The position numbers and the translations under genes are program-made. Source: Thermoflexia bacterium (lineage in GTDB: Bacteria > Chloroflexota > Anaerolineae > B4-G1 > SLSP01). Taken from it: a stretch of 64,000 nucleotides of DNA. Under the pieces are notes generated by a model, which saw only the letters and a program-made list of their open reading frames with translations, had not been told where the DNA came from and did no database searches. The stretch covers positions 3,090-67,089 of the forward strand of contig DUEJ01000001.1 in assembly GCA_011192175.1 (NCBI GenBank), given 5' to 3'. Positions 1,085 to 62,230 of the stretch are shown here, piece by piece (the first letter of the stretch is position 1; the number at the start of each line of letters is the position of its first letter).

Positions 1085-1275
1085 CCCAGCATTTCTCCGC
1101 TAAGCCGCTAAGAAAAAATTTAGACCGGGTTGAAAAGTTTATCCCCCACTGGTCAAAGAGTTAATTCTCTGAAGATTAATTTTCGAATCTTTGCGCCTTT
1201 GTGATAAAAATCTATGTTTTTGCAGTAGACTCAATTATCGTATTTTCTCTCAGTGTCTCTAGATTTCTTCTCTGT
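1085..1275. repeat. dispersed composite intergenic repeat family (copy A)
   Basis: ccgctaagaaaaaattta...ctctgaagattaattttcgaatctttgcgcc...tttttgcagtagactcaatt...tctctgtgtatctctgg. Inverted homologue of 36290-36480. Confidence 0.7.
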
Positions 1276-2885: not shown

Positions 2886-3875
2886 ATGCCCTACTTTGAC
2901 TCTTTCCAACGACCCATCAGCTACCTTAGAGTATCCGTCACCGACCGCTGCAACCTACGTTGCGTTTACTGTATGCCAGAGGGCGGTGTGGCCCAGATAC
3001 CGCACCAGGACATCTTGCGGTATGAGGAACTTGAGCGCATCGTGCGGGTCGCCGTGGGGATGGGCATTAACCATGTTCGCCTCACGGGCGGGGAACCGTT
3101 GGTGAGGAGCGGCATTGTAGAACTGGTGACTGCGCTGGCCGCTATCCCGGGGCTGGATGATCTTTCGATGACGACCAATGGGACCCTGCTAGCGCGTTAC
3201 GCGGACGCCTTGGCCCAGGCAGGCTTGCGGCGGGTCAACATCAGCTTAGATACGCTTGACCCGAAGCGTTTCCGGCAGACGACCAGATTGGGAACACTCG
3301 CCGAGGTGTTGGCGGGGCGGAAAGCCGCGTTGCGTGCGGGCCTGCGCCCGGTGAAGATCAACACGGTGGTGATCCGTGGCTTGAACGATGACGAAGTAGT
3401 CGAGCTGGCGCGGCAGACGTTCCAACCGGATTGGCATTTGCGCTTCATTGAGGTGATGCCGCTGGGCAGTGGCGTACATTGGGCCGGCGATGGGGTGGTG
3501 CCCTCCGCCGAGATCCGCGCGCGTATCGCCGCTGCGTGGGGAGAGCTGACGCCCGTACATGGCAAAACCGGCGTCGGCCCGGCCCGCTACTATCGCCTAC
3601 CTCACGCGGAAGGGACGTTAGGCTTCATCAGCGCCATCAGCGAGCATTTTTGCCATGCTTGTAACCGCCTCCGCCTGACCTCCGATGGTCAAATTTTGCC
3701 CTGTTTGATGTCCAACCAGAGCGTAGATCTAAAAACTCCCCTGCGGGCGGGCGTTGATGACGCAACCTTGCAGGAGATTTTTGAGCAAGCCATCCGGGCT
3801 AAACCCCGAGGGCACCATTTGACGGAAGGTATTTTACCTTTAAACGTCAGACCGATGTCGGGCATTGGAGGCTAG
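2886..3875 (+). CDS. moaA: GTP 3',8-cyclase MoaA (radical SAM)
   Basis: Motif [20 protein letters not shown] is the CxxxCxxC radical-SAM signature. C-terminal Cys motifs [13 protein letters not shown] are typical of MoaA. Confidence 0.9.
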
Positions 3876-4362
3876 ACCGATGAAACTATCACATTTAGAT
3901 GAGACGGGCGCGGCACAGATGGTTGATGTTACGGAGAAAAGTTCCACGCAGCGGATGGCGAGAGCTGCCGGCGAGGTCCAGATGCGGCCGGAGACATTAG
4001 CGCTGATTCAGGCCGGGAGTTTGGCTAAGGGAGACGTGTTAGCCGTGGCGCGCGTCGCGGGAATCATGGCCGCCAAGCGCACTCCCACGTTGATCCCGCT
4101 CTGCCATCCACTCCCGATCACCAAAGTAAAGGTGGATTTCTCCTTCGCTGAAGAGCCGTCGCGGGTCAAAATTGTGGCGGAGGTGCGTTGCACCGGCGTT
4201 ACCGGGGTGGAGATGGAAGCCTTGACGGCGGTGAGCGTCGCCGCGCTCACCATCTACGATATGGGCAAAGCCGTCGAGCGCGGCATGCAGATTCAGCAGA
4301 TTCGCCTCTTAGAAAAACATGGCGGCCAGAGCGGCGATATTGTATTGGAAAGAGTCGAGTAG
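3865..4362 (+). CDS. moaC: cyclic pyranopterin monophosphate synthase MoaC
   Basis: MoaC-like sequence (LSHLD...[12 protein letters not shown]). It overlaps the moaA 3' end by 11 bp, which indicates translational coupling. Confidence 0.85.
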
Positions 4363-5447: not shown

Positions 5448-5750
5448 ATTTCATTGAATTTCACCATGAAGGCACAAAGAACACTGAGAAAAAATTAAAA
5501 AACTCGGTACTCTCAGTGTCCTAGTATGATAAAATAGTATGATAAAATTAGCATGGGACCCGGCAGGCAGGCCGTGTCTAGGTCAATCGCAGGCCGCCAC
5601 AGAGTTCTGTGGTGAAAACTGCCCCGGAATATTGAGAGGCTCCAGTATAGTTAAATAGGTTTAATCCAAAACTAAATTTTTTTTTCTTAGTGTCTTAGCG
5701 GTGAACTAGTTTTTTAGGGAAGTCAACATTTTGAGTAGCAAAGGAGGTAT

Positions 5751-14854: not shown

Positions 14855-15015
14855 AATTATCTTGCCGCCAAGACGCTAAGAAAATTCTATTTCCTGAAGG
14901 TTGATTTTCAAATCTTTGCGTCTTAGCGGTGAAATTCTTGGTTTTTGCAACAGACTCAAGTTTCAAATCTTGGTGATCTCTGGGCCTCTGCGATGAAGTT
15001 CTTACCTGGCGCTTC
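14855..15015. repeat. dispersed composite intergenic repeat family (copy B)
   Basis: Shares the gacgctaagaaaa...aatctttgcgtcttagcggtgaaat...tttttgcaacagactcaagtttcaaatct motifs with the copies at 1085-1275, 36290-36545 and 62095-62230. Confidence 0.7.
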
Positions 15016-16091: not shown

Positions 16092-16235
16092 ATACACCTT
16101 TTCCTGTCTCAAGTCAAAAGTCGAAGGTCGCAAATTGGAGGGCGCTACTCAAACTACCGGCCTCGGCTGGTTGCTCTCATCAGACGCCCTCAGTCAGCGA
16201 CTTGAGACGGGTCCCAGCACAGCGGCAGGGAGGCT

Positions 16236-16288
16236 CTTCCTCGCTCCTCTCGCTTTCTCGCCTTCTCGCCCTCTCGCTTTCTCGCCTA
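16236..16288. repeat. CTCGC(T/C)TTCTCGCC tandem octamer/24-mer repeat array (copy 1 of 3)
   Basis: Array cctcgctcctctcgctttctcgccttctcgccctctcgctttctcgcc sits between the sensor-kinase stop and the REC-cyclase start. It is the same family as the arrays at 50619-50667 and 52583-52688. Confidence 0.8.
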
Positions 16289-19200
16289 TGTTTCCAGCGG
16301 TAGCCACACTGTGAAAGTGCTTCCTGCTCCCAATGCACTCTCAACTTCAATCCGGCCGCTGTGCATTTGAATCAACTGTTTGGTGATCGAAAGCCCCAAA
16401 CCGGTGCCCTCCACCTGCCGCGTGCTGGAACCATCTGCCTGACGGAAGCGGTCGAAGATTTTAACTTGATCTGCTGCGCTGATACCAATTCCCGTATCTT
16501 CAACAGCAATGCAGAGCCAGCGACGGCTTTGCTGGTAAGCTCTTACTTTCACGTACCCCGTTTCGGTGAATTTCTCAGAGTTACCCACCAGGTTATTGAG
16601 GATTTGATGTAAGCGCACGCGGTCGGCCCGAATAAGCGGCAGGTCATCTTCTATCTCTATCAGAAACTCGACCGGGCTGGTAGCAAAGAGGCTAGCGTTG
16701 CTGGTTTCTAAATCTGCTAGAACCTGGGCCACGTTCACATTCTCTGCCAGATTTAAGGTCATCTGTCTGGCCTCGATCTTAGCCAGATCCAGGATATCGT
16801 TGATCATGTTCAGTAGGTGTTGCCCATTTTCGTAGATGGCTTGTACATCTTTGAGCGTCTCATCGTCCAGGGAGCCATCTATGCCCATCATCATGATTTC
16901 GGCATAACCGATGATGGAGTTGAGCGGGGTGCGCAGTTCATGGCTCATATTGGCTAAGAACTCGCTCTTGAGACGATCCACCTCCCGCAAGCGCTCGGTG
17001 GTCTGCCGGAGCTCCTCTACAAAGTCAGCGTTCTGCAGCGCGGTGGCGAGTTGTCCCGCCAGCGTGCTAAAGACGTCCAGGTCGGCCTGGGTAAAGTAGT
17101 TGACTTGATCGTGCTGCACATCAAAGACGCCCAACACCTGCTCGCCGGCCACCAATGGCACGGCCACCTCTGATTTAGTATCCGGAAGCAATGGGTTAGG
17201 CATAAAGCGGGGATTGGTCGTCACGTCGTCTACCACCACGATTTCCCTGTTCCGCGCGGCCTGCGCTACCAAACTGGCGGGGTGCGCCAACGGGATGTTA
17301 TGGCCCACTGCTAACATCTTCGCGCCAGGTTCGCCGTACCCGGCCCGTAGTTTGAGCGTTTCCTCTTCTAGGGTGTAAACATGAGCGTAGTAGAGATTAA
17401 AGCGCTCCTTGAGTAGCGGGATCACCGTATTTAACAACTTGTCTGGATCTAAAATCTCGCTCACCTGTCCGGCGATGTCGGCGGCAGTGCGCAGTTGGCG
17501 GGTAAAGCGCTCGCGCTCGGCTTCTGCTTCCTTGCGCTCAGTGATGTCGCGGACGGTGCCGATTAAACCCACCAGTTGACCAGCTTCGTTCTTGATAATC
17601 GTAGTGGTCATTAAAGTGGGGAAGGTCTGGCCATCTCTGGTAACATGTCCAACCTCACCCTGGTGTGAACCCTGCGCCATCGCTTGCTCGTTGAAAGCAA
17701 CCACCTCTTCTTCTAACTGTTCGGCAGTGTGGAAAATGCTCAGGGGTTTGCCCATCAATGTAGTTGGATTATCATAGCCGTGCATCTTGGCCCAGGCGGA
17801 GTTGACAAATAAGATATTGCCTTCCAAATCGATGAGGGCGATGCCATCGCCTACCTGCTCCACGGCACTATTTAACCGCAACAAGTCTTCCTCTCTCGCC
17901 TTGCGCTCAGTAATATCACGGACCATCACCACCATGTGCGTGGGAGTCTCGGTGGCATCGCGGATCATAAAGACGGTGGCGTTGGCCTCAAACACCGTGC
18001 CATCATCTAACCGTTTTTGGAATACATCACCCTGCCAACCCGTAGCCAGGGTTTGGGGTAATACCGTCTCCGCCAGATAGGGCAGATCTTCTTCCCGCCA
18101 GAACTCGGTGCCTAGATGGGTAGTCATTTCGATGTCCCCGTAGAGCTCGCGGGCTGCGGGATTGGCGTACAGTACTTGATTATCTCCGGGATCTACCATC
18201 ACGATCGCATCGTTAGAGGTCTCCGCCATGGTTTGGAAAATCAGGATTTGCTTTTCCGCCCGCTGTTGCGCCTCGAAGGCTTGCGCGTTCTGCAACGCGG
18301 TGGCGAGCTGCCCAGCCAGAATGAGGTAGGTATCCACATCTTTCTCGGCAAAGCGTCCCAACTGATCATCTTGCAGATCCATCACCCCCAGCACCTCGCC
18401 GCCGGCGATCAGCGGCACGGCCAGCTCGGAGCGGGTCTGCGGGAGCAGGGGATTAGGCATGAAATCAGAATCCAACGTGGTATCTGTCACCAATGCCGGC
18501 GCCTGTCCTCGCGCGGCGCGCGCCACCAGGCTCTTCTCGCGTTCCAGGGGGATTTGATGTCCACGCTCGCACAGTACCCGCCCGACCTCCCCGGAGCCGG
18601 CTTGTACTACCAACTGGCGGGTCTCTTTATTCAAGAGGTAAATATGGGCATGATAGAGTCCAAAACGGCTCCGTAGCAACTCCACTACCTGTTGTAAGAG
18701 TTCTTCGGTATCTAGGATAGTACCGATCCGGCGCGCGATCTCGGCTACAGTGCGGAGTTGCGTGGTGAAAACAGTTAAGGATTCTTGTTGCTCGGTAATG
18801 CGTTCCAATAGCTCACTGTTTTCCAGGAGGAAAGAGACTTGATCAACCATCGCTTGGAAGAGCTCTACCGTATGAGAGGTAAAACGTCCCGGCGAGCGGG
18901 CTTGCGCGTCCAGCACTCCGAGTGCCTCGTCCCCGACTCTCAGCGGCACCACCAACTCTGACCGTGTCTCGGGAAGCAAGGGGTTGGGCATAAAGTTGGG
19001 GGCGGTGCTCGTGTCGTCCACCAGCACCGGCTCCCCGGTGTGAATGGCTTTTGTTACCAGTGACGTAGCCTCTAACGGGATCTGGTGTTTTTTCTGGAGC
19101 AACTGCCGCCCGGCGTAACCGGTGGATTGGCGCAGCACCGCCGCGTCCCGTTCCTTGTCTACGAGATAGATTTGGACGTGGTAGAGGTCAAACTGGTCAC

Positions 19201-30960: not shown

Positions 30961-32265
30961 ATGGCTAGTATTAAGAATTATCTGCTGACAATCACTAAAC
31001 AGAGCACCGATAGAGGCCAGAAACTCCTCCTAGTACTGGGGGTGGGGACGGGTGCTACGGCTATCTTCGCCCTCTTCTTGGCTATCGCTTTCCCCGCCCT
31101 CCAGCGGCAGCTAGAATCTCCGCTGGACCTGATGTTCAGTATCTTGGGATACCTGCTGCTCTTTGTCTGCGTAATGGCGATGGCTTTCTTGGCTGCCAGG
31201 GGTATCTTTATCCAATTCGTGCAACGCATGTACAACTTGGATGCTGAAGAAGCTACCGGTTTAGTCAACCGGATCATTGGTGGTCTGCCGGAAAAACCTC
31301 CTTTTTCGCCTGTGATTGCCGTACGGCAAGGGCATATTATGGATAACGCGCCGAACGTATTGCGCAAGGTCGGCGGCCCCGGTTTCTTGAGCGTGGGGCA
31401 TGAAAATGCGGTGGTGCTCTCGCGCGGAGGGATTTTGGTCAAAGTGTTAGGGCCGGGCTGGTACCGCCTGGAAGCCTTTGAGAAGGTCTGGCGCGTGGTG
31501 GATTTGCGCACTCAGCGGCGGGAGATCACCGTGGAGACCAACACCCGCGATGGCATCCCAATCACGTGCCAAGCAGAAATCCGTTTCCATGTGGATAATG
31601 GCGCAAACACAGCGCACGCCTTACCTTTTACTGAGGTAAGTAAAAAGTCGGTCTTCCAGCTGGCGACAAATATAGTAGCGCTAGCCCCTGGGGGACTGGA
31701 AGAAGAACGCACGGCGATGAAGCTTATTGCCGGCGGTAAATTGGATGGGCAGATTCGTAACTGGATAGAACAGTATCGCTTGGACGAGCTCTTCTCCCCG
31801 CAACGTGAGATACCGGTCATCGTAGAATTACAGGCGGCGGTCACGGACGCGACTATCAGAGCTGGCCGGGAGTGGGGTCTCCAGGTGGAACAAGTAGAGA
31901 TTAAGAGCCTCCTGCCTTCCGGAGAGCTCATCTCTGAACAGTGGTTCGAGATGTGGCGCTCAGAATGGGACTACCTGGCAAACAAGGAGAAAGCTGTCGC
32001 CAAAGCCGAGGGGACCGAGATTGTCAAAATGGCCCGGCTGCAAGCTCAAACTCAATTGGTGGATAATCTGATCCGGCAACTAAAAAAGATAGCGCCAGAA
32101 GACCGACAGATTTCCCCGGCTTTGGTGCATCTCCGGTTCTTGGATGTGGTGCGTTCCCTGGCCGAGAGCGATCCACTGGTACGCAGCACTATGTTCAAAG
32201 AAGCCCAGGGGTTGGGCAATATTATTGAGATGCTACAATCATTGCCTGCTCTTGACTCAGAGTAA
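30961..32265 (+). CDS. polytopic membrane protein with an SPFH/band-7-like domain (paralogue 2)
   Basis: Same architecture. The core ENAVVLSRGGILVKVLGPGWY...VDLRTQ...TNTRDGIPI is alignable with the upstream gene. The start is 3 bp after the stop of paralogue 1. Confidence 0.55.
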   Translation: MASIKNYLLTITKQSTDRGQKLLLVLGVGTGATAIFALFLAIAFPALQRQLESPLDLMFSILGYLLLFVCVMAMAFLAARGIFIQFVQRMYNLDAEEATGLVNRIIGGLPEKPPFSPVIAVRQGHIMDNAPNVLRKVGGPGFLSVGHENAVVLSRGGILVKVLGPGWYRLEAFEKVWRVVDLRTQRREITVETNTRDGIPITCQAEIRFHVDNGANTAHALPFTEVSKKSVFQLATNIVALAPGGLEEERTAMKLIAGGKLDGQIRNWIEQYRLDELFSPQREIPVIVELQAAVTDATIRAGREWGLQVEQVEIKSLLPSGELISEQWFEMWRSEWDYLANKEKAVAKAEGTEIVKMARLQAQTQLVDNLIRQLKKIAPEDRQISPALVHLRFLDVVRSLAESDPLVRSTMFKEAQGLGNIIEMLQSLPALDSE

Positions 32266-36289: not shown

Positions 36290-36545
36290 GAGAGCTCACC
36301 ACAGAGACACAGAGAAAAACATAAATTTTATGGTAAACATGACTTCCCCGGAGGAAGAGTGCTTTTGCCGCAAAGACGCGAAGGCGCAAAGATTTGAAAA
36401 TTAGCTTTCAGAGAATTAACTTTTTGACTGGTATTACTAAATTTTTCTTAGCGTCTTGGCGTCTTAGCGGAGAACTAACTTTTTGCAACGGAGCCAAGTT
36501 TAAAATCTCGGTGCTCTCCGTGCCTCCGTGGTGAAATTTTTGCTC
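36290..36545. repeat. dispersed composite intergenic repeat family (copy C; inverted relative to copy A)
   Basis: The reverse complement aligns over about 190 bp with 1085-1275. It also carries the ttagcgg...tttttgcaacggagccaagttt...ctccgtgcctccgtggtgaaat module. Confidence 0.75.
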
Positions 36546-42562: not shown

Positions 42563-42640
42563 TCTCCCCGGAGCACTACCCAATTTTGGCAAAGATTCCG
42601 GTGTGGTATACTACGTCTCGTTCTATTTTACATAATCCAG

Positions 42641-42741
42641 GTATCATCTCAAAAAATTAGGGCCGGTTGTATCCCGGATTGTCAATCCGGCGGGCGGAAT
42701 ACCATTCCGCGCTACAAGCCCCCGAAATATTGAGATGATAC
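42641..42741. mobile_element. 101-bp MITE-like element with perfect 12-bp terminal inverted repeats (GTATCATCTCAA / TTGAGATGATAC) and an 8-bp target-site duplication TAATCCAG
   Basis: TIRs at 42641-52 and 42730-41. Identical flanking octamers at 42633-40 and 42742-49. Internal 8-bp palindrome ccggattg-t-caatccgg at 42674-90. No coding capacity. Confidence 0.8.
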
Positions 42742-42788
42742 TAATCCAGCGTAAAATTATTATTAGTTGAAACAAAGGAGCAGCTGTA

Positions 42789-44072
42789 ATGAATAAAACC
42801 AAGTGGGTGTTAATTAGTATCCTGATAGTATTTTCTCTTTTATTGGCCGCTTGCGATGCACCCGGGACACCTGAACCCACCGCAACCACCATCCCAGAGC
42901 CTACGGCGAAGAGTGCCGCCACTGAAGATACGCAATCACCAGAAGAAACCAGCGTAGCGAGTGAACCTACCGGGCCGGTAGAAATCATGGCTCCCGCAGA
43001 GCCGGGAGTTTGCGAAAATCAGCCGATGCCCCAACTGCCGGTACGTCCCGTTGATGAGAACGATTGGCTAAAGGGGGCCTCTGGGGATGATGTAGAGCTC
43101 ACGATTATTGAATACTCCGATTTTGAGTGCCCCGGTTGCAGTGGCACCGCACCGATGTTAGCGCAATTCTTAGCCGATCATCCGACTGCGCAGCTAACCT
43201 ATCGTCACTTCACGCTCTCCTTCCATGAGAAGGCGATATTAACCGCCGAAGCCAGCGAAGCTGCCGGGGCGCAGGGTAAATTCTGGGAGATGCACGATCT
43301 AATCTTCGCGAATCGCGCTGAATGGCAACCACTTTCCGAGGAAGAAGCGCGCGCGAAGATGAGTGCTTACGCTGAAGAATTGGATTTGGATTTGAAGCAG
43401 TTTGATAGTGCTCTAGATGACGGCATCTATCTGGCCGCCATAGAGGCCGAGACGGAAGAATCGCAAGAGTTGGGATTGCCGGGGACCCCCTCACTGATCC
43501 TCAATGGATACCTCTATCCCACCGACCAGTTGGGACTCTCTCTGCAAGGTTTGGAGGCCTTCCTGGATATTCTCTCCCTGGCGGATAAACAATACGCGGC
43601 AGCGCCGGAGATCACCCTGGACGTTGAGAAGAACTACGTAGCCACGGTCAACACCACCCAGGGCGCTATTACCTTTGATCTCTTCACCGAATCCGCCCCT
43701 ACCAACATTAACAATTTTATCTTCCTGGCCAATGAAGGTTGGTATGAGGATACCGATTATTTCTTTGTGCAGGATAATTTCGTGGCGCTAACCGGCGATC
43801 CCACCAACAGCGGCATGGGTTATCCTGGTTACTACTGTACCGGCGAAACGCAAGGGATCTTTGACCGCAGCGGATTAGTGGGCATGTTACCCAACGGGCA
43901 GTTTTTCATCACCAAGGGACCTGAAGCCGCAAGTCTCAACAGTAAGTTCGCGCTGATTGGACAGGTAACAGCCGGTTTGGACGTATTGGATAAATTAGCC
44001 AGCACGCAACCGGGCGCTGCTGCTGGTGTGGAACTAGATCAGGTAAAGAGCGTTACGATCGTAGAAGAATAA
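42789..44072 (+). CDS. lipoprotein fusing a DsbA-like thioredoxin domain (CPGC) to a cyclophilin-type peptidyl-prolyl isomerase domain
   Basis: Signal LLAAC. Thioredoxin segment IIEYSDFECPGCSG...GTPSLILNG. Cyclophilin segment VNTTQGAITFDLFTESAPTNINNFIFLANEGWYEDTDYFF...GLVGML...FFIT. Confidence 0.7.
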   Translation: MNKTKWVLISILIVFSLLLAACDAPGTPEPTATTIPEPTAKSAATEDTQSPEETSVASEPTGPVEIMAPAEPGVCENQPMPQLPVRPVDENDWLKGASGDDVELTIIEYSDFECPGCSGTAPMLAQFLADHPTAQLTYRHFTLSFHEKAILTAEASEAAGAQGKFWEMHDLIFANRAEWQPLSEEEARAKMSAYAEELDLDLKQFDSALDDGIYLAAIEAETEESQELGLPGTPSLILNGYLYPTDQLGLSLQGLEAFLDILSLADKQYAAAPEITLDVEKNYVATVNTTQGAITFDLFTESAPTNINNFIFLANEGWYEDTDYFFVQDNFVALTGDPTNSGMGYPGYYCTGETQGIFDRSGLVGMLPNGQFFITKGPEAASLNSKFALIGQVTAGLDVLDKLASTQPGAAAGVELDQVKSVTIVEE

Positions 44073-50529: not shown

Positions 50530-50618
50530 CTGGCACTCGCCTTGTTAGTCAGTTAGTCCAGTAGTCTGGTAGTCGTTAGTTCGGTAGTCTCAGTAACGCG
50601 ACTTTTGCGATGATGTGT

Positions 50619-50667
50619 TCGCTCCCTCGTTCATTCGCTTTCTCGCTCACTCGCTTTCTCGCTTCAC
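50619..50667. repeat. CTCGC-type tandem repeat array (copy 2 of 3), at the left border of the ATPase/TOPRIM islet
   Basis: gctccctcgttcattcgctttctcgctcactcgctttctcgcttcac. Confidence 0.75.
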
Positions 50668-51396
50668 TGTTCCTGCGGTATAAACTTTTCCAGCTCTCGG
50701 TACCACTGCCTAAAAAGAGGACATTTGCCAATGACCACAGGTACCAGCATCTCTTGCAGTAGTCGGGGTGTATGAACAGCCTTGGAATAATGCACGTTTG
50801 CTTCATCCAATGCCGCTTCCATAATCAGTGCGGAAAGTTTTTCCTCACAAGCGTCTTTTTTCTCATCTAAAGTGCTAAAATTTTCTGGTTCAGCAAAAGA
50901 TACGTTATGTTGGCTGGCTAAACAATGACGCATAGCCCCGTGATGCGCACGAAAGTCTAAATCTTTGGCAAAAGTATTACTCCAGTCTGCGATCAACCAG
51001 GCTTCAATCTCAGGAGCCGCGAAACCTATTACCATCCGGTCGCTCTGCATATCAGGGAACTCGCCAAGCACGGCGTTAATGGTGTCCCTAAACAGCTTCT
51101 CACGTTCTTCCGCTACGTGACAGTCCAAATCGTCCATAACCAGAATGAGATCATAATTCTCACCACGATTTAAGGCCGCCCGTAATTGTCTGACAATACG
51201 ATTGGCTAACTCTCCGCCTGTGCCCCCCCCATAACTTTAGGGGCCCATTAGCACCTGGTCTGGCCCCAGGTTTCTGGTAGTAGGGAGTTTTCCTCTCAAA
51301 TTGCGCCTGCGCGAACTGTTTTCTCAAAAATGGCAGGAACCCCTTTACTTCCGAGGGGCCGCCTCCGGCAAAGACCCAAGTCTTTACCACGGCCAA
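50664..51396 (-). pseudogene. TOPRIM-like partner protein (DUF4276-like by memory) of the adjacent ATPase, disrupted by a +1/-1 frameshift in a G8/C8 homopolymer
   Basis: Two ORFs (51160-51396 and 50664-51137) join into one 243-aa reading frame if the C8 run at 51223-51230 is read as C7. The joined protein reads ...KLWGGTGGELANRIVRQL...DLILVMDDLDCH.... It has a TOPRIM-like Glu (GGGPSE) and a DxD (DDLD). It overlaps the ATPase stop by 13 bp. Confidence 0.6.
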
Positions 51397-52565
51397 CCGC
51401 CCACGCTGGGATCACCAACGCGATAGAGGTCTCCTAATTTCCACCCTTCTTGCAACCAGCTCGCTACGCTTTCTTGAGTCAAACGGTTGATGGCGAAGTG
51501 CCCGGTATCTCGTTCAGGTGCGCTGAATACCAGTACGTTTTCCACTTCATCCGTAAAATGATCTAATAAATCGGGGCTGTGGGTACTGATGATAATTTGA
51601 GTTTTAAGAGAGGCGTTTTTGATCCAATGGGCAAGTACTTCTAGCCAAGCCACGTGTATACCCATTTCGGGTTCCTCTATCACCAGGAGAGCGGGCAACT
51701 GCGGCGAATGTAGGATCGTAGCCCAACACAACATCCGCACCAGGCCATCAGACATCTCCCTCAGATAAAAGGGTTCTGGGGTATCCGCAATATACCATTG
51801 CACAGCCAGTGATAGTTGCCCCGCAAAAACCGTTCTTATCCGGCGGGTAAGGGGCCAAATGCCTTGCATGGCCTGGTTGATACGCTCTTCAAATTCAAGA
51901 CTATCCTCCATAAGATTGTGGAGGACCAACGTCAAGTTCTCGCCAGAAGCAGTAAGGTATCTATCCCCTTGTCCCACTTTGGGTTCTGCCTCTCGGATGC
52001 GTTTTAGATTCATGCTGTTGGCGTTGTAGAAATGCCAGTGAGAAAAAGAACCCAGCAAATTATACAGCGGAATAGGTCCAGCTGCTAGAATTGCCCCTTC
52101 AATGGTCTCCTGCTCATGCTGGTTTTGTCTAAAAAGCATTTTATCATTGAATCCCTCACCTTTCCTTCTTTCGACAGCAACATCTTCTCGGTAAATGACC
52201 GGGAAACGGTTTCCCGGTACAAACAGTAACGTAAGTCGGAGACGGCTTTGAACCTCTTCGGGCGGTAAAGGACTTAAATAGAATTCTAAATTGACCTGCC
52301 CCGGTCGTTTCACGGTTTTATCTAATATGTCAGAGCCGCCTAGCTGCATAATGGCTTTGTCGAAGCTCGAGACCTCATCCACAGAAGGTAAGCTGGCATT
52401 TTCCAGAAAACGAAAGATATTCACCAAGTTACTCTTGCCTGAACTGTTGGGACCAATTAAGATATTCAAGCTGCCAAAACTGACATCTAGCGGACCTAGG
52501 TTCTTATAGTTTTCCGCTACCAGCCTGTTAATATGATACGTGGCTTTGAAACCGCTTTCTCTCAT
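51384..52565 (-). CDS. soluble ABC-like AAA ATPase (AAA_21/AAA_15 type; OLD/PARIS-AriA-like)
   Basis: Walker A GPNSSGKSN. ABC-signature-like MSDGLVRM. Walker B/D-loop LLVIEEPEMGIH. H-loop ISTHSP. No TM domains. Local GC is lower than the surrounding genome. Confidence 0.75.
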   Translation of the reverse strand: MRESGFKATYHINRLVAENYKNLGPLDVSFGSLNILIGPNSSGKSNLVNIFRFLENASLPSVDEVSSFDKAIMQLGGSDILDKTVKRPGQVNLEFYLSPLPPEEVQSRLRLTLLFVPGNRFPVIYREDVAVERRKGEGFNDKMLFRQNQHEQETIEGAILAAGPIPLYNLLGSFSHWHFYNANSMNLKRIREAEPKVGQGDRYLTASGENLTLVLHNLMEDSLEFEERINQAMQGIWPLTRRIRTVFAGQLSLAVQWYIADTPEPFYLREMSDGLVRMLCWATILHSPQLPALLVIEEPEMGIHVAWLEVLAHWIKNASLKTQIIISTHSPDLLDHFTDEVENVLVFSAPERDTGHFAINRLTQESVASWLQEGWKLGDLYRVGDPSVGGWPW

Positions 52566-52582
52566 ATCTGTTCCTCTCCCTT

Positions 52583-52688
52583 CCTCGCTTTCTCGCTCCC
52601 TCGCCTTCTCGCCTTCTCGCTCACTCGCCTTCTCGCTTTCTCGCTCACTCGCCTTCTCGCTTTCTCGCTCACTCGCTTTCTCGCTTCT
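52583..52688. repeat. CTCGC-type tandem repeat array (copy 3 of 3; about 4 units of a 24-bp period built from 8-mers), at the right border of the islet
   Basis: cctcgctttctcgctccctcgccttctcgccttctcgctcactcgccttctcgctttctcgctcactcgccttctcgctttctcgctcactcgctttctcgcttc. Confidence 0.85.
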
Positions 52689-53328
52689 GGGGAGTGTGCT
52701 TGGATATCTGAATCAAGGGTGGTTTTTCGTAGAAAATGGGTAGAAACCGTTCTTCTCGCTTAGAGAGACGTTTGATGTTAGGCCGTAGCGCCCAGAGCGT
52801 CAACAACATAGTTGGGAGGCCAAATCCCAGTGCGTAAGGCCATCCCCCATGCCAGTAACTCAACCCTGGCAGAGAGAGCGCGATAAGGATAGAAGCCACG
52901 GAAGCATGTCCTACCAATCCAACAACCGCAATCGCCGGGATTAACAATAGCGGCAAGTTCCCTCCCCACATCGCACTGGCAATCCCCAGGCTGGTGATCG
53001 TGCCCGCGCCACCGGTAAAGCCCAGATAGAGTGAGTAATTATGCCCCACTATGCCTAGCGCCCCCGTGAGGGCCACTGCCCAGGGGCTAAGTCCCAGTGC
53101 TTTGGCTATCCAGATGCCGGCGGCCCCCTTGAAGCCATCACAGATAGCTGTTAAGAGGGCCGCTAGTGAACCACTGGTGCGCCAGACGTTGGTGCCGCCG
53201 GTGCGCCCGCTCCCATGTTGGCGTACGTCAATATGTTTGAGCACCTTGGCCCAAAGAATACCCGGCGGAAGCGAGCCTAATAAGTAAGCGGCGGCCCAGG
53301 CGATAAATAATTTTACAGCTGTTCCCAT
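52669..53328 (-). CDS. plsY: glycerol-3-phosphate acyltransferase PlsY
   Basis: HGSGRTGGTNVWR motif and a polytopic profile. The extreme C-terminal tail is encoded by the tandem-repeat array, so the true stop is uncertain. Confidence 0.8.
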   Translation of the reverse strand: MGTAVKLFIAWAAAYLLGSLPPGILWAKVLKHIDVRQHGSGRTGGTNVWRTSGSLAALLTAICDGFKGAAGIWIAKALGLSPWAVALTGALGIVGHNYSLYLGFTGGAGTITSLGIASAMWGGNLPLLLIPAIAVVGLVGHASVASILIALSLPGLSYWHGGWPYALGFGLPTMLLTLWALRPNIKRLSKREERFLPIFYEKPPLIQISKHTPQKRESE

Positions 53329-53330
53329 TT

Positions 53331-54083
53331 TTACTCCTCATTTTGTCCACAGTGTGGACAGTTAGCAGTTCTGGTAACTTGTATCTTCTCAAAAGAGTGG
53401 TGCAATCCATCCCAGAGCAGTAGCTGATCCACCAATGGCGTCCCTATCCCCAGCAACACTTTGAGCGCCTCCAGCGCTTGCAACGTGCCGATTACCCCGG
53501 CTGTGGCGCCGATAATTCCAAGTTCGGCCGGTGATTGCTGGCTGCCCGGTTCCGGCAGCTCGGGGAAGATGCACCGGCGGCAAGCGTGACCGGGCAGCAC
53601 TACGCTTAATTGCCCCTCAAATCGTTGCACCCCCGCCCATACCAGGGGCACTCTGGCCCGCACACAAAGTTCGTTGATTAGAGCCTTGCTGGCTAGATTG
53701 TCGGTAGCTTCCACCACTAGATCATAATCTGCAATTAGGGCGGGGCCATTCGCACGCGAGACACGCATGATATGCGGGATGATGGTAATTTCTGGATTGA
53801 ATGCCCGGAGGCGGCGCGCCGCTTGCTCAACCTTGTTTCGGCCTATCCCCGCTGGCGTGTAGAGAATCTGGCGATTCAAGTTGGTAGAAGAGAGCAAATC
53901 GTCATCAGCAATACCCAGCGTGCCCACCCCGGCGGCGGCCAGATAGAAGAGCGCGGGGGAACCCAGCCCTCCGGCTCCAATCACCAAGACACGCGCTGTC
54001 TGCAACCGGGCCTGTCCAGCTACACCAATTTGGGGAATCGCTATCTGTCGCGCGTAACGCCGATTTACTTGAACTTCGTTCAT
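53331..54083 (-). CDS. ThiF/MoeB-family E1-like adenylyltransferase
   Basis: Rossmann motif VLVIGAGGLGSP, a catalytic Asp region and the C-terminal CxxC...CPHCG zinc motif. Confidence 0.8.
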   Translation of the reverse strand: MNEVQVNRRYARQIAIPQIGVAGQARLQTARVLVIGAGGLGSPALFYLAAAGVGTLGIADDDLLSSTNLNRQILYTPAGIGRNKVEQAARRLRAFNPEITIIPHIMRVSRANGPALIADYDLVVEATDNLASKALINELCVRARVPLVWAGVQRFEGQLSVVLPGHACRRCIFPELPEPGSQQSPAELGIIGATAGVIGTLQALEALKVLLGIGTPLVDQLLLWDGLHHSFEKIQVTRTANCPHCGQNEE

Positions 54084-57646: not shown

Positions 57647-59215
57647 TTGGCAAAACCTCAAAATTGTGGCATACTCTCACGAGTGAATATCTTACGGATT
57701 ACGCCAAAGGAAGATCGTTATACGGTACGCGAGGCATTACGCCATACGCCCGCCAAGTTGGTTCTCATTCAGCTGCCCTGGGAAGTAGAAACGGGCTGGG
57801 ATTCGTTACTTGATTACGAAGTGCTGTTAAAAACCTGCCAAGAAAAACAACTGAGCTCGGCCTGGGTAGTGGCGGATTTTACCAAACGCGCTCTTCCCCG
57901 TGAGGCAGGATTCACCGTCTTTGTCAGCGTGGCGCAGGCCGAGACTTATCTGGCCGCACACGGTACTTTCCCCGTTCCCACACCACCAGCGCGCCCAGCG
58001 CGGCCGCAACGTCCCCCCTGGGCTGAGAAGCTAGAGCCGCGGGTGTTGCGCGGCCCGCGGCCGCGCTGGTTGCTCCCCATACAGCTTGGGATATTGCTGA
58101 TCGCGTTAGGCGCCATAGGAATGGTGGCTTTCCTGACGCTGCCCTCCGCGCAAATTAGCTTGGTGCCGCAACAAGCTACTTATGCCCTGATTGTGCCTAT
58201 CTCCGTCTCGGCAGAGATGGACCCCGGCACCGTGGATTTTCAACGCAATCTTATTCCGGGCCGGCGCGTGGGTGATGAGTTCGAGAGCTACGCCGAAGTG
58301 GGCACTACCGGACGGGGAGACACCGTCTCAGGAAGATCCACGGGGCAAGTCTTCTTCACCAATCAGTTGGGACAGAACTATCAAGTTCCCGCCGGGACGA
58401 TAGTCCGCACCTCCGCCGGCTCTTATCCGGTACGCTTCAAGACCACGGACCCCATTGACGTGCCGCCTTTTGGTCAAGCAGCGGTTTACGTCGAGGCGTT
58501 GGAGCAAGGCCCACGCGGGAATGTGGGAACCTACCAGATCAACTTTGTGGAAGGCGTGGTCGGCTTTGCCCTCAAAGTGACCAATCCCGATCCTATCACC
58601 GGCGCGGAGAGCCAGAAGACAGCGACTGTCTCGCAAGCGGATCAGGGCCGCGTCTGGGGCATCGCCGCCGAGCAGGTGCTGGCCGAGGCCAATAATGGGC
58701 TGCAAGCTGCGGCTTATCTGCAACCGGGCGAGTTTATCCCGCACCAGGACCTGATCATCCAGGCGACGCCCAAAGAAACCTACACCCACCTAGTGGGCGA
58801 GCAAACCGATGTATTAGGAGTGTCACTGCGCCTGCTAGTAACTGGATTGGCCGTCAACGCTACCGACGCCCAAAAAATCGCCTACCGCCGGCTCTCCACC
58901 CAACAACCCCCCGGCTATCGACTAACCGATACCCGCTTTGAGATCGGAGAATCCGCGGAAGAGGATGTGGGCGCTGGACGCTTCACCTTCTACGTTACCG
59001 CTCACGGCTATGCCACTGCGGAGATCAACCAGGATGTAGTTTGGGAAGCCATACAAGGGCAACGCGCCACAGACGCCCGCGCCACCTTGAGTGCATCTTT
59101 ACCGCTAGCTCAAGAACCGGAGATTGTTATTTCCCCGGAGTGGTTCCCTTTTATCCCTCGCCTCCTCATCCGCACCGCAATCACCATCAAGCCGGGTAAA
59201 TGGAGTGGCAAGTAA
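57647..59215 (+). CDS. hypothetical membrane-anchored protein with a large extracytoplasmic domain
   Basis: 522 aa with one TM segment (LLPIQLGILLIALGAIGMVAFL) after a roughly 150-aa cytoplasmic N-terminus. The Pro-rich linker is PTPPARPARPQRPP. No family is recognised. Confidence 0.45.
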   Translation: MAKPQNCGILSRVNILRITPKEDRYTVREALRHTPAKLVLIQLPWEVETGWDSLLDYEVLLKTCQEKQLSSAWVVADFTKRALPREAGFTVFVSVAQAETYLAAHGTFPVPTPPARPARPQRPPWAEKLEPRVLRGPRPRWLLPIQLGILLIALGAIGMVAFLTLPSAQISLVPQQATYALIVPISVSAEMDPGTVDFQRNLIPGRRVGDEFESYAEVGTTGRGDTVSGRSTGQVFFTNQLGQNYQVPAGTIVRTSAGSYPVRFKTTDPIDVPPFGQAAVYVEALEQGPRGNVGTYQINFVEGVVGFALKVTNPDPITGAESQKTATVSQADQGRVWGIAAEQVLAEANNGLQAAAYLQPGEFIPHQDLIIQATPKETYTHLVGEQTDVLGVSLRLLVTGLAVNATDAQKIAYRRLSTQQPPGYRLTDTRFEIGESAEEDVGAGRFTFYVTAHGYATAEINQDVVWEAIQGQRATDARATLSASLPLAQEPEIVISPEWFPFIPRLLIRTAITIKPGKWSGK

Positions 59216-59300
59216 CGATGATTTTATTAAAAAACCGTTACTTGTAACTCAGCCACCCTGCAAAATTCAAGAGTGGACGCAGATTTTAGAGCTTAATTTT

Positions 59301-59395
59301 GTATCATCTCAATATTTTGGGGGCTTGTAGCGCGCAATGGTATTCCGCCCGCCGGATTGTCAATCCGGGATACAACCGGCCCTAATCTTTTTCTT
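59301..59395. mobile_element. second, inverted and one-end-truncated copy of the 42641-42741 MITE
   Basis: The reverse complement matches the element core (gtatcatctcaatatttt...ccggattgtcaatccgg...ggccctaat) at roughly 95% identity. One TIR is missing. Confidence 0.7.
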
Positions 59396-59445
59396 AGCGG
59401 CTTAGCGACTTTACGGCAAGCCAACTTTTTTTGTGGAGAGTAAAG

Positions 59446-59868
59446 ATGCGTTATCTGGCTTTAGACTTAGGAGCTCGTCGCATTGGAATCGCTATCAGCG
59501 ATCCCACCGGGTTGCTGGCTCGCTCCCTGGAGGTAATGCAGCGGACTTCTCGCGCCGCCGACTTTGAGCATATTGGGGAGTTGATCCACCAATATCAGGT
59601 AGCCGCGCTAGTGGTGGGCTTACCTCTCAACATGAACGGCAGCGAAGGCTCACAAGCTGCCTGGGTGCGGAATTACAGTGCGGAGTTGCAAGCGACCGTT
59701 GAGTTGCCGCTTCATCTCTGGGACGAGCGTCTCACGACTGAAGAGGCCGCCGATATTTTACGCGCGCAAGGCAAACGCCCCCGCGAGCATAAGAATTGGA
59801 TCGATGCGGTGGCTGCATCAGTTATTTTACAGAGTTTCCTAGATGGAAATAAATTAGCCGTCTACTAA
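59446..59868 (+). CDS. ruvX: Holliday-junction resolvase-like YqgF/RuvX (pre-16S rRNA nuclease)
   Basis: MRYLALDLGARRIGIAISD N-terminus with the RNase H-like fold catalytic Asp. LVVGLPLNMNGSEG. 141 aa. RBS ggagag. Confidence 0.8.
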   Translation: MRYLALDLGARRIGIAISDPTGLLARSLEVMQRTSRAADFEHIGELIHQYQVAALVVGLPLNMNGSEGSQAAWVRNYSAELQATVELPLHLWDERLTTEEAADILRAQGKRPREHKNWIDAVAASVILQSFLDGNKLAVY

Positions 59869-62094: not shown

Positions 62095-62230
62095 ACGGAA
62101 GTTGGCTCACCGCTAAGACGCCAAGTTGCTAAGAAAAATAAGTTGCTGAAGGTTAGGGCTTAAAATCTCCGTGCTCTTCGCGCCTCCGTGGTGAAATACT
62201 TAGTTTTTTCAGTAGACTCAACTTTTAACT
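62095..62230. repeat. dispersed composite intergenic repeat family (copy D)
   Basis: gctaagacgccaagttgctaagaaaaataag...aatctccgtgctcttcgcgcctccgtggtgaaat...ttttttcagtagactcaacttttaac. Confidence 0.7.

Follow-up and report, generated by a model that had tools for sequence, protein, structure and literature searches.

The window, by which we mean the whole 64-kb stretch of DNA that was analysed, belongs to a Thermoflexia/Chloroflexota MAG. Between a glycosyltransferase-4 (GT4) gene and a gene with Thioredoxin_4/DSBA and Pro_isomerase domains (herein DsbA-PPIase) it carries a short element, copy A, for which the initial annotation proposed a 101-bp unit with perfect 12-bp terminal inverted repeats (TIRs) and an 8-bp target site duplication (TSD); direct reading of positions 42633-42749 bears this out. 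Copy A, an intact MITE, spans 42641-42741 (101 bp, plus strand) and has 77 internal bases between its outer 12-bp repeats. The left TIR (42641-42664, plus strand; PWM score 29.0) opens with a perfect outer 12 bp, GTATCATCTCAA (42641-42652), followed by a subterminal stretch, AAAATTAGGGCC, that is imperfect yet compatible with the family end pattern GTATCATCTCAAWAWWTNNGGG. The right TIR (42718-42741, minus strand; PWM score 29.9) reads GTATCATCTCAATATTTCGGGGGC on the minus strand, its outer 12 bp being TTGAGATGATAC on the plus strand (42730-42741), and it too is compatible with the pattern. Counted from the sequence, the two TIRs match at all of positions 1-12 and at 6 of the next 12. The flanking 8-bp repeats, TAATCCAG, lie at 42633-42640 and 42742-42749 (no strand assigned to either); both were read directly, and the relatives L134, L136 and L137 have a single such site, unoccupied.

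The perfect internal palindrome reported previously, CCGGATTG-T-CAATCCGG, is present at 42674-42690 (no strand assigned) and forms one of two internal hairpins, the other being GCGGAATACCATTCCGC at 42693-42709. The element was also described as lacking coding capacity; no credible coding capacity was found in copy A, and the sole overlapping ORF is an antisense one of 114 aa that runs out of the DsbA-PPIase gene. The right end of copy A is separated by 47 bp from the DsbA-PPIase ATG at 42789. Allowing at most one mismatch, five instances of the TIR 12-mer were counted in the window, where shuffled sequence would give 0.23, and none of 100 shuffles reaches five. A tblastn search for transposase similarity across the window returned chance matches only (E ≥ 0.29), and 8.6 kb of additional scaffold yielded neither a transposase nor a further MITE copy. 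The 72.6 kb examined, the element included, encode no transposase, so that copy A could be mobilised only in trans.

The identical locus is present in four other assemblies, with the element in all of them; two of the four, L004 and L005, are independent assemblies of the same organism and break inside the element, a hint that more copies exist. Precise empty sites in relatives, the check proposed alongside the original description, were found in L134, L136 and L137, where the target TTTACA-TAATCCAG-CGTAAAAT is uninterrupted. In the ortholog locus of L134 (80% amino acid identity) the gene order TPR, GT4, DsbA-PPIase, PrsW is kept, and the spacer between GT4 and DsbA-PPIase measures 95 bp, versus 226 bp in the window. 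L134 reads TTTACATAATCCAGCGTAAAATTATT, with a single TAATCCAG in the context ...TTTACA TAATCCAG CGTAAAATTATT... Copy A inserted at TTTACA|TAATCCAG|CGTAAAAT, duplicating 8 bp in the process.

Other insertions were seen around this gene pair. In L136 (77% identity) the spacer between GT4 and DsbA-PPIase, the one that has the MITE in the window, contains a pair of restriction-modification genes (436-2427), one for MethyltransfD12 and one for a SacI-like endonuclease, so this spacer accepts insertions repeatedly. In L134 a different member of the MITE family (3791-3936), absent from the window, lies between DsbA-PPIase and PrsW.

A second, inverted copy lacking one TIR had also been reported, and copy B (59301-59391, minus strand; PWM score 29.6) is real: it belongs to the same MITE subfamily and is about 95% identical to copy A. 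Its end is placed here at about 59391, in preference to the originally reported 59395. A repeat search pairs the arms 42651-42744 and 59298-59391, which are 95% complementary over 94 nt at loci 16.5 kb apart; two copies of the subfamily at 95% identity were thus seen in 64 kb. Alignment with copy A shows that one TIR is kept (59301-59312) and the other is missing. Both internal hairpins are conserved between the copies, which differ at three positions, one of them an uncompensated break in a hairpin pair. Between the end of copy B and the ruvX ATG at 59446 there are 55 bp; as first stated, both copies lie 5' of plus-strand genes.

The place of the missing TIR of copy B is taken by a repeat of another kind (59388-59430, plus strand), from a second intergenic family that is unrelated to the MITE, TTTTTCTTAGCGGCTTAGCG...AAGCCAAC. 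The subterminal CTAATTTTTT of the MITE and the CTAAATTTTT of the adjoining repeat are similar strings, and the second TIR of copy B would have been lost after insertion, possibly through a deletion involving CTAAT(T)TTTT, the short stretch in which the two resemble each other. Lacking this TIR, copy B should now be immobile. In relatives at 75-78% identity only 1-2 nt separate the stop of the upstream Baseplate_J-like gene from the ruvX start, whereas the window has a 230-nt spacer between the two genes; the whole spacer, including copy B, is therefore lineage-specific. These relatives are too distant for an exact empty site or TSD of copy B to have been recovered from them, and no partner of TTAATTTT was found.

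Two minor similarities involve the same spacer. The sequence GTGGCAAGTAACGATG at the stop of the upstream gene (59205-59220) matches GTGGAGAGTAAAGATG, which holds the ribosome-binding site and start of ruvX (59433-59448), at 13 of 16 positions, a marginal score that 20 of 500 shuffles reach; this junction-like direct repeat may be a duplicated gene junction around the whole spacer (here taken as 220 nt), implying a larger insertion event. Separately, the junction of MITE interior and second repeat, CAACCGGCCCTAATCTTTTTCTTAGCGGCTTAGCG (59373-59407), is matched at 86% by CAACCCGGTCTAAATTTTTTCTTAGCGGCTTAGCG (1098-1132). The TIR-less arrangement of copy B could itself be repeated there; outside the repeat core, 1098-1132 and 59373-59407 match at only 10 of 15 nt.

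The window contains further sites with some likeness to the element. Positions 5470-5645 (plus strand; PWM score 18.9) probably hold a decayed relative of another subfamily, with a TIR-like right end, CCCCGGAATATTGAGAGGCTCC, and an internal hairpin that resembles the one in the MITE family member of L134. The TIR-like sequence GTATCTTCTCAAAAGAGTGGTG in the 3' end of a minus-strand ORF (53381-53402, plus strand) has a PWM score of 24.4, compared with a maximum of 23.7 in 20 shuffles, and may be either a remnant or a product of chance. A TIR-like 12-mer at 32225-32236 was considered as a family end and attributed to chance, its PWM score of 12.9 lying inside the shuffle range.

Scanning metagenomes with GTATCATCTCAAWAWWTNNGGG, the pattern that matches both ends of copy A, yielded at least 120 loci from many kinds of sample; the apparent conservation of the TIR among them arises partly from locus selection, since the pattern demanded the exact 12-bp TIR. 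We regard a fortuitous inverted repeat next to a fortuitous direct repeat, for which the shortness of the repeats is the one point that speaks, as practically negligible. It is refuted by these loci with the same 22-bp end, by the empty sites in relatives and by the second, 94-nt copy, and the excess of the 12-mer in the window runs against it as well.

The same ends delimit at least 65 unique small elements in the metagenomes, 50-380 bp long and mostly about 80-135 bp. Internally these elements are unrelated to one another and usually consist of GC-rich palindromes. A perfect 8-bp TSD flanks 25 of the 65, a further 11 match at 7 of 8 positions, and no perfect case reaches 9 bp; a TSD of 8 bp characterises the family as a whole and not copy A alone. 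In 118 family flanks, taken among the matches listed, TSD positions 2-7 are 69-79% A+T, positions 1, 8 and 9 are richer in GC, and flank positions 11-16 are again AT-rich. The target in the window, ATTTTACA-TAATCCAG-CGTAAAAT, has the same symmetric AT-rich arms. Among the fetched sequences, IS interiors included, the internal 58 bp of copy A had no match beyond the two copies in the window. A scan of a genome collection with the palindrome core CCGGATTGWCAATCCGGCGGG returned six matches in six phyla that share the palindrome only, and these were set aside as unrelated.

The search for an autonomous IS with the same TIRs, also proposed at the outset, succeeded. Among the matches listed, an ORF of about 550 aa adjoins the TIR in at least 21 loci. 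It matches Pfam PF03050 (DDE_Tnp_IS66) with E-values of 1e-11 to 1e-14 and 44-52 bits, against a gathering score of 23.1; with the IS66 equivalog model NF033517 of NCBIfam it scores 109 bits, below the cut-off of 180, which places the transposase in a divergent branch of IS66. A search against solved structures gave no match for the transposase. Complete elements are present at no fewer than 10 metagenome loci, with 12 of 12 positions matching at both TIRs save for a single mismatch in one TIR. Eight of these ten are 1.77-1.81 kb long and filled by one ORF of about 550 aa, and the other two, at 2.84-2.96 kb, have a second ORF. To them is added L142, a 1815-bp element in the Chloroflexota MAG GCA_016215025.1, with TIRs identical to those of the window and a perfect 8-bp TSD, AATTTCTC.

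More distant relatives lie on Nostoc plasmids (L132 and L133); their transposases are 49% identical in amino acid sequence, their TIRs read GTATCGGCTCAATAAGTAGGGG and similar, and they have perfect 8-bp TSDs, GTTTATTT and CATCATCG, respectively. A perfect 8-bp TSD therefore flanks all three well-assembled full-length copies (L132, L133 and L142). On metagenome contigs the full-length IS copies showed none (0-4 of 8 bases match), and most transposase-bearing metagenome contigs are about as long as the IS itself; we assume that the absence probably reflects chimeric flanks of collapsed repeats. The closest autonomous end among the loci compared is that of the L118 IS, identical to the outer 23 nt of the right end of copy A at 23 of 23 positions, and the transposase of L118 shares 86% identity with a protein from a Chloroflexota MAG. 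The transposase family, left unnamed in the initial annotation, would be IS66, of the single-ORF, ISBst12-like type that makes 8-bp duplications.

The two longer variants (L060, 501-3457; L108, 289-3129; 2.84-2.96 kb) have the same TIRs and an extra ORF of 306-336 aa. This ORF is neither tnpA nor tnpB; it has a DruA/DUF4338 domain (PF14236, E = 1e-36 to 1e-37), overlaps the transposase start by 7 nt and is 84% identical between the two. Judged by these sequences, L060 and L108 point to a subgroup of this IS family that has two genes, one of them for a Druantia-like accessory protein.

The TIRs and TSD of copy A are exactly what insertion of a full-length IS would leave, and copy A could in principle be the remnant of such an IS, deleted in situ and never mobilised as a short element. 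This we consider very improbable. Copies A and B share their interior (95% over 94 nt) at unlinked loci, which two independent deletions would not yield, so the short element itself must have spread; the internal 58 bp are dissimilar to the interior of every fetched IS; and the 65 or more small elements bounded by the same ends, with TSDs among them, show that short forms do spread.

The predicted RNA fold of copy A is strong on both strands (-42 to -44 kcal/mol, z about -4.9). Together with the 5' intergenic position of both copies and the two conserved hairpins, this would also be in keeping with an immobile structured non-coding RNA, or a host leader element, that merely resembles a transposon. 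Copy B, with one TIR missing, folds no better than shuffled sequence (z = 0.3 and -0.03), so TIR pairing accounts for most of the fold energy, and the one difference that breaks a hairpin pair is uncompensated. Rfam returned no match at the gathering threshold and chance-level matches only at E ≤ 10, and ARAGORN found no tRNA; over the window the two programs place tRNAs and an L10 leader elsewhere and nothing at either copy. A tRNA-like or other structured RNA, considered for the likeness of the hairpin to an anticodon arm, was rejected on these grounds. The orthologous site is empty in three relatives, the duplication is exactly 8 bp and the element ends are identical to IS ends; given all this, an RNA or leader element is a highly implausible explanation.

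Taken with a probability of roughly 0.9, our reading is that copy A is a MITE of a large family whose termini of about 22 bp are those of a single-ORF IS of about 1.8 kb in the IS66 family, like members of the ISBst12 group. An IS66-type DDE transposase, encoded elsewhere in the genome or formerly present there, would bind the TIRs, cut AT-rich targets with a stagger of 8 bp and insert the element; we infer from the shared ends that copy A was mobilised in trans by an enzyme of this type.

IS66 inverted repeats typically start 5'-GTAA. Those of the autonomous partners start GTAT (GTATC) in place of GTAA or GTGA. In most other respects the partners are like the ISBst12 group: they have a single DDE_Tnp_IS66 ORF with a coiled-coil N terminus, no tnpA or tnpB, a length of about 1.8 kb and an 8-bp TSD. 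In ISDge4 of Deinococcus geothermalis, a described member of that group, there is one ORF, the TIR reads GTRACTRCTCAGCA and the direct repeat measures 8 bp (PMC12898284). The form GTAnCnnCTCA is common to the TIRs of ISDge4 (GTAACTGCTCAGCA; GTAACTGCTCA) and of the family described here (GTATCATCTCAATA). The partner transposases are longer, at about 550 aa versus 449 aa in ISDge4, and some partner relatives, unlike the ISBst12 group, have the extra DruA/DUF4338-domain gene; the element in the window differs from the group in having no ORF at all.

Classical MITEs include the Correia elements of Neisseria and RUP of Streptococcus pneumoniae, both of which have TA or short TSDs. With such elements copy A shares its strong hairpin potential and its potential effect on neighbouring genes. 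Another example is MITEPsy1 of Pseudomonas syringae, which is 100 nt long, has 18-nt TIRs and was mobilised experimentally (PMC3189936). Like MITEPsy1 and the classical MITEs, copy A is about 100 bp, non-coding and intergenic; its TIRs are those of an IS, and its TSD has the length that this IS generates. MITEPsy1 has been assigned to an IS5-type IS that makes a 4-nt TSD, whereas copy A points to an IS66-type IS with an 8-bp TSD, and the mobility of MITEPsy1 is experimental whereas that of copy A is deduced from comparative data. REP/BIME elements, served by RAYT (IS200/IS605-like) transposases, are likewise short, palindromic, intergenic and present in multiple copies. REPs have neither TIRs nor a TSD and are associated with HUH Y1 transposases; membership of copy A among them was rejected, since TIRs and a TSD are both present in it and its ends are those of a DDE IS.

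Searching the literature for the TIR strings gave unrelated primer matches only, and a search of published papers found no description of this TIR or of IS66- or ISBst12-derived MITEs. The word novel in the initial annotation is to be read in that sense: the family does not seem to have been described, as far as the papers searched go. Copy A is an ordinary kind of bacterial mobile DNA; its recognition is useful for annotation, is not surprising and opens no new biology. It explains two unannotated intergenic repeats, as well as the assembly breaks of this organism at these points, and connects many small repeats of metagenomes with a single branch of IS66, a poorly characterised family. The ends of about 22 bp, the 8-bp TSD and the target preference make a defined set for studying single-ORF IS66 transposases, and the insertion in the predicted leader of the DsbA-cyclophilin fusion gene may alter its expression.

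Each TIR contains an outward-facing TTGAGA, 6 nt from the tip. Scored against a sigma-70-like consensus that we assume to hold for Chloroflexota, promoter-like sites made up of this hexamer and a TAAAAT in the flank are found at three of three TIR ends in the window, with spacers of 16-18 nt and 10 of 12 consensus matches. One, with a 16-nt spacer (42730-42757, plus strand; 10 of 12), faces DsbA-PPIase; its mirror image at the other end of copy A also has a 16-nt spacer (42625-42652, minus strand); and the one at the intact TIR of copy B has an 18-nt spacer (59283-59312, minus strand) and points toward the 3' end of the upstream gene, away from ruvX. It is a matter of speculation that TTGAGA and the flanking TAAAAT could act together as a new promoter. 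Equally speculative is the idea that the conserved TGGTATACT upstream of copy A is an extended -10 promoter element, in which case the 5' leader of the DsbA-PPIase mRNA would include copy A, transcribed into a stable hairpin.

From these sites comes a proposal that would add to the MITE reading: copy A may have been co-opted, its outward -35 (TTGAGA) and the flanking -10 (TAAAAT) driving DsbA-PPIase, while the GC-rich hairpins and a T-run may attenuate read-through from upstream. The position of copy A between the conserved TGGTATACT and the ribosome-binding site is in keeping with this, as is its RNA fold (-42 kcal/mol, z = -4.9). At spacers of 15-18 nt there is an excess of -10-like hexamers (14 in the 118 flanks, against about 0.94 per other offset), an enrichment that a symmetric AT-rich target preference explains just as well as selection does. 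The promoter-like site of copy B runs antisense into the upstream gene, a terminator scan found nothing inside either copy, and the proposed promoter sites are consensus matches; we judge regulatory co-option possible and on balance unlikely.

A broader proposal takes the family to be a very large, undescribed superfamily of MITEs, mobilised by IS66 (ISBst12-like) transposases across phyla that include Chloroflexota, cyanobacteria and many unassigned metagenome lineages. Given an outward -35 and symmetric AT-rich targets that place a -10 at the right distance, its members would routinely form hybrid promoters and, through their GC-rich hairpins and T-runs, terminators too, and so would serve as portable expression cassettes, here rewiring DsbA-PPIase, a gene for periplasmic folding. 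We hold this to be a doubtful extension of the MITE reading.

Several other intergenic repeats were encountered in the window. The second repeat family, adjoining copy B, has a core, TTTTTCTTAG-NNN-CTT(A/G)GCG, present in six copies against 0.13 expected: 1098-1117 (minus strand), 5681-5700 (plus), 14866-14885 (minus), 36442-36461 (plus), 59388-59407 (plus) and 62119-62138 (minus). Longer versions, which add TTGAGTCTACTGCAAAAAC...GGCGCAAAGATTTGAAAAT, occupy about 1090-1240, 14860-15000, 36377-36540 and 62099-62221. After the repeat there often come (A)AGCCAAC and a T-run, directly ahead of a gene start; examples are 5751, about 14830 (minus strand) and ruvX. On this sequence pattern it may represent a promoter or leader common to several genes, or a further mobile repeat.

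Tandem arrays of (CTCGCYTT)n with an 8-nt period are found at 16233-16296, 50602-50673 and 52552-52695 (family D1, 19 overlapping copies), and the octamer theme TCTTAGCG, TCTTGGCG, CTCCGTGC recurs in other intergenic repeats; the arrays are reminiscent of cyanobacterial short tandem repeats. A 38-nt family, D2, consists of the repeat TTAAAATCTCGGTGCTCTCCGTGCCTCCGTGGTGAAAT, which the window contains seven times, at 5496, 10972, 14962, 36500, 37974, 49007 and 62160. This repeat resembles the internal hairpin of the L134 MITE family member (3791-3936); either that MITE captured a host repeat, or the TTAAAATCTCGGTGCTCTCCGTGCCTCCGTGGTGAAAT repeats would be TIR-less remnants of MITEs.

Outside the window and unrelated to the MITE, a stretch of about 180 nt is conserved around CCGGATTGACAATCCGG in MAGs of Verrucomicrobiia, Methylomirabilota and Gemmatimonadota (L006, 1508-1528; L008, 2248-2268; L009, 930-950). 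It starts GGTGAACCGTTACCT...GGATGGCATTCTGCGGCACC and may be a conserved RNA or the end of a mobile element.
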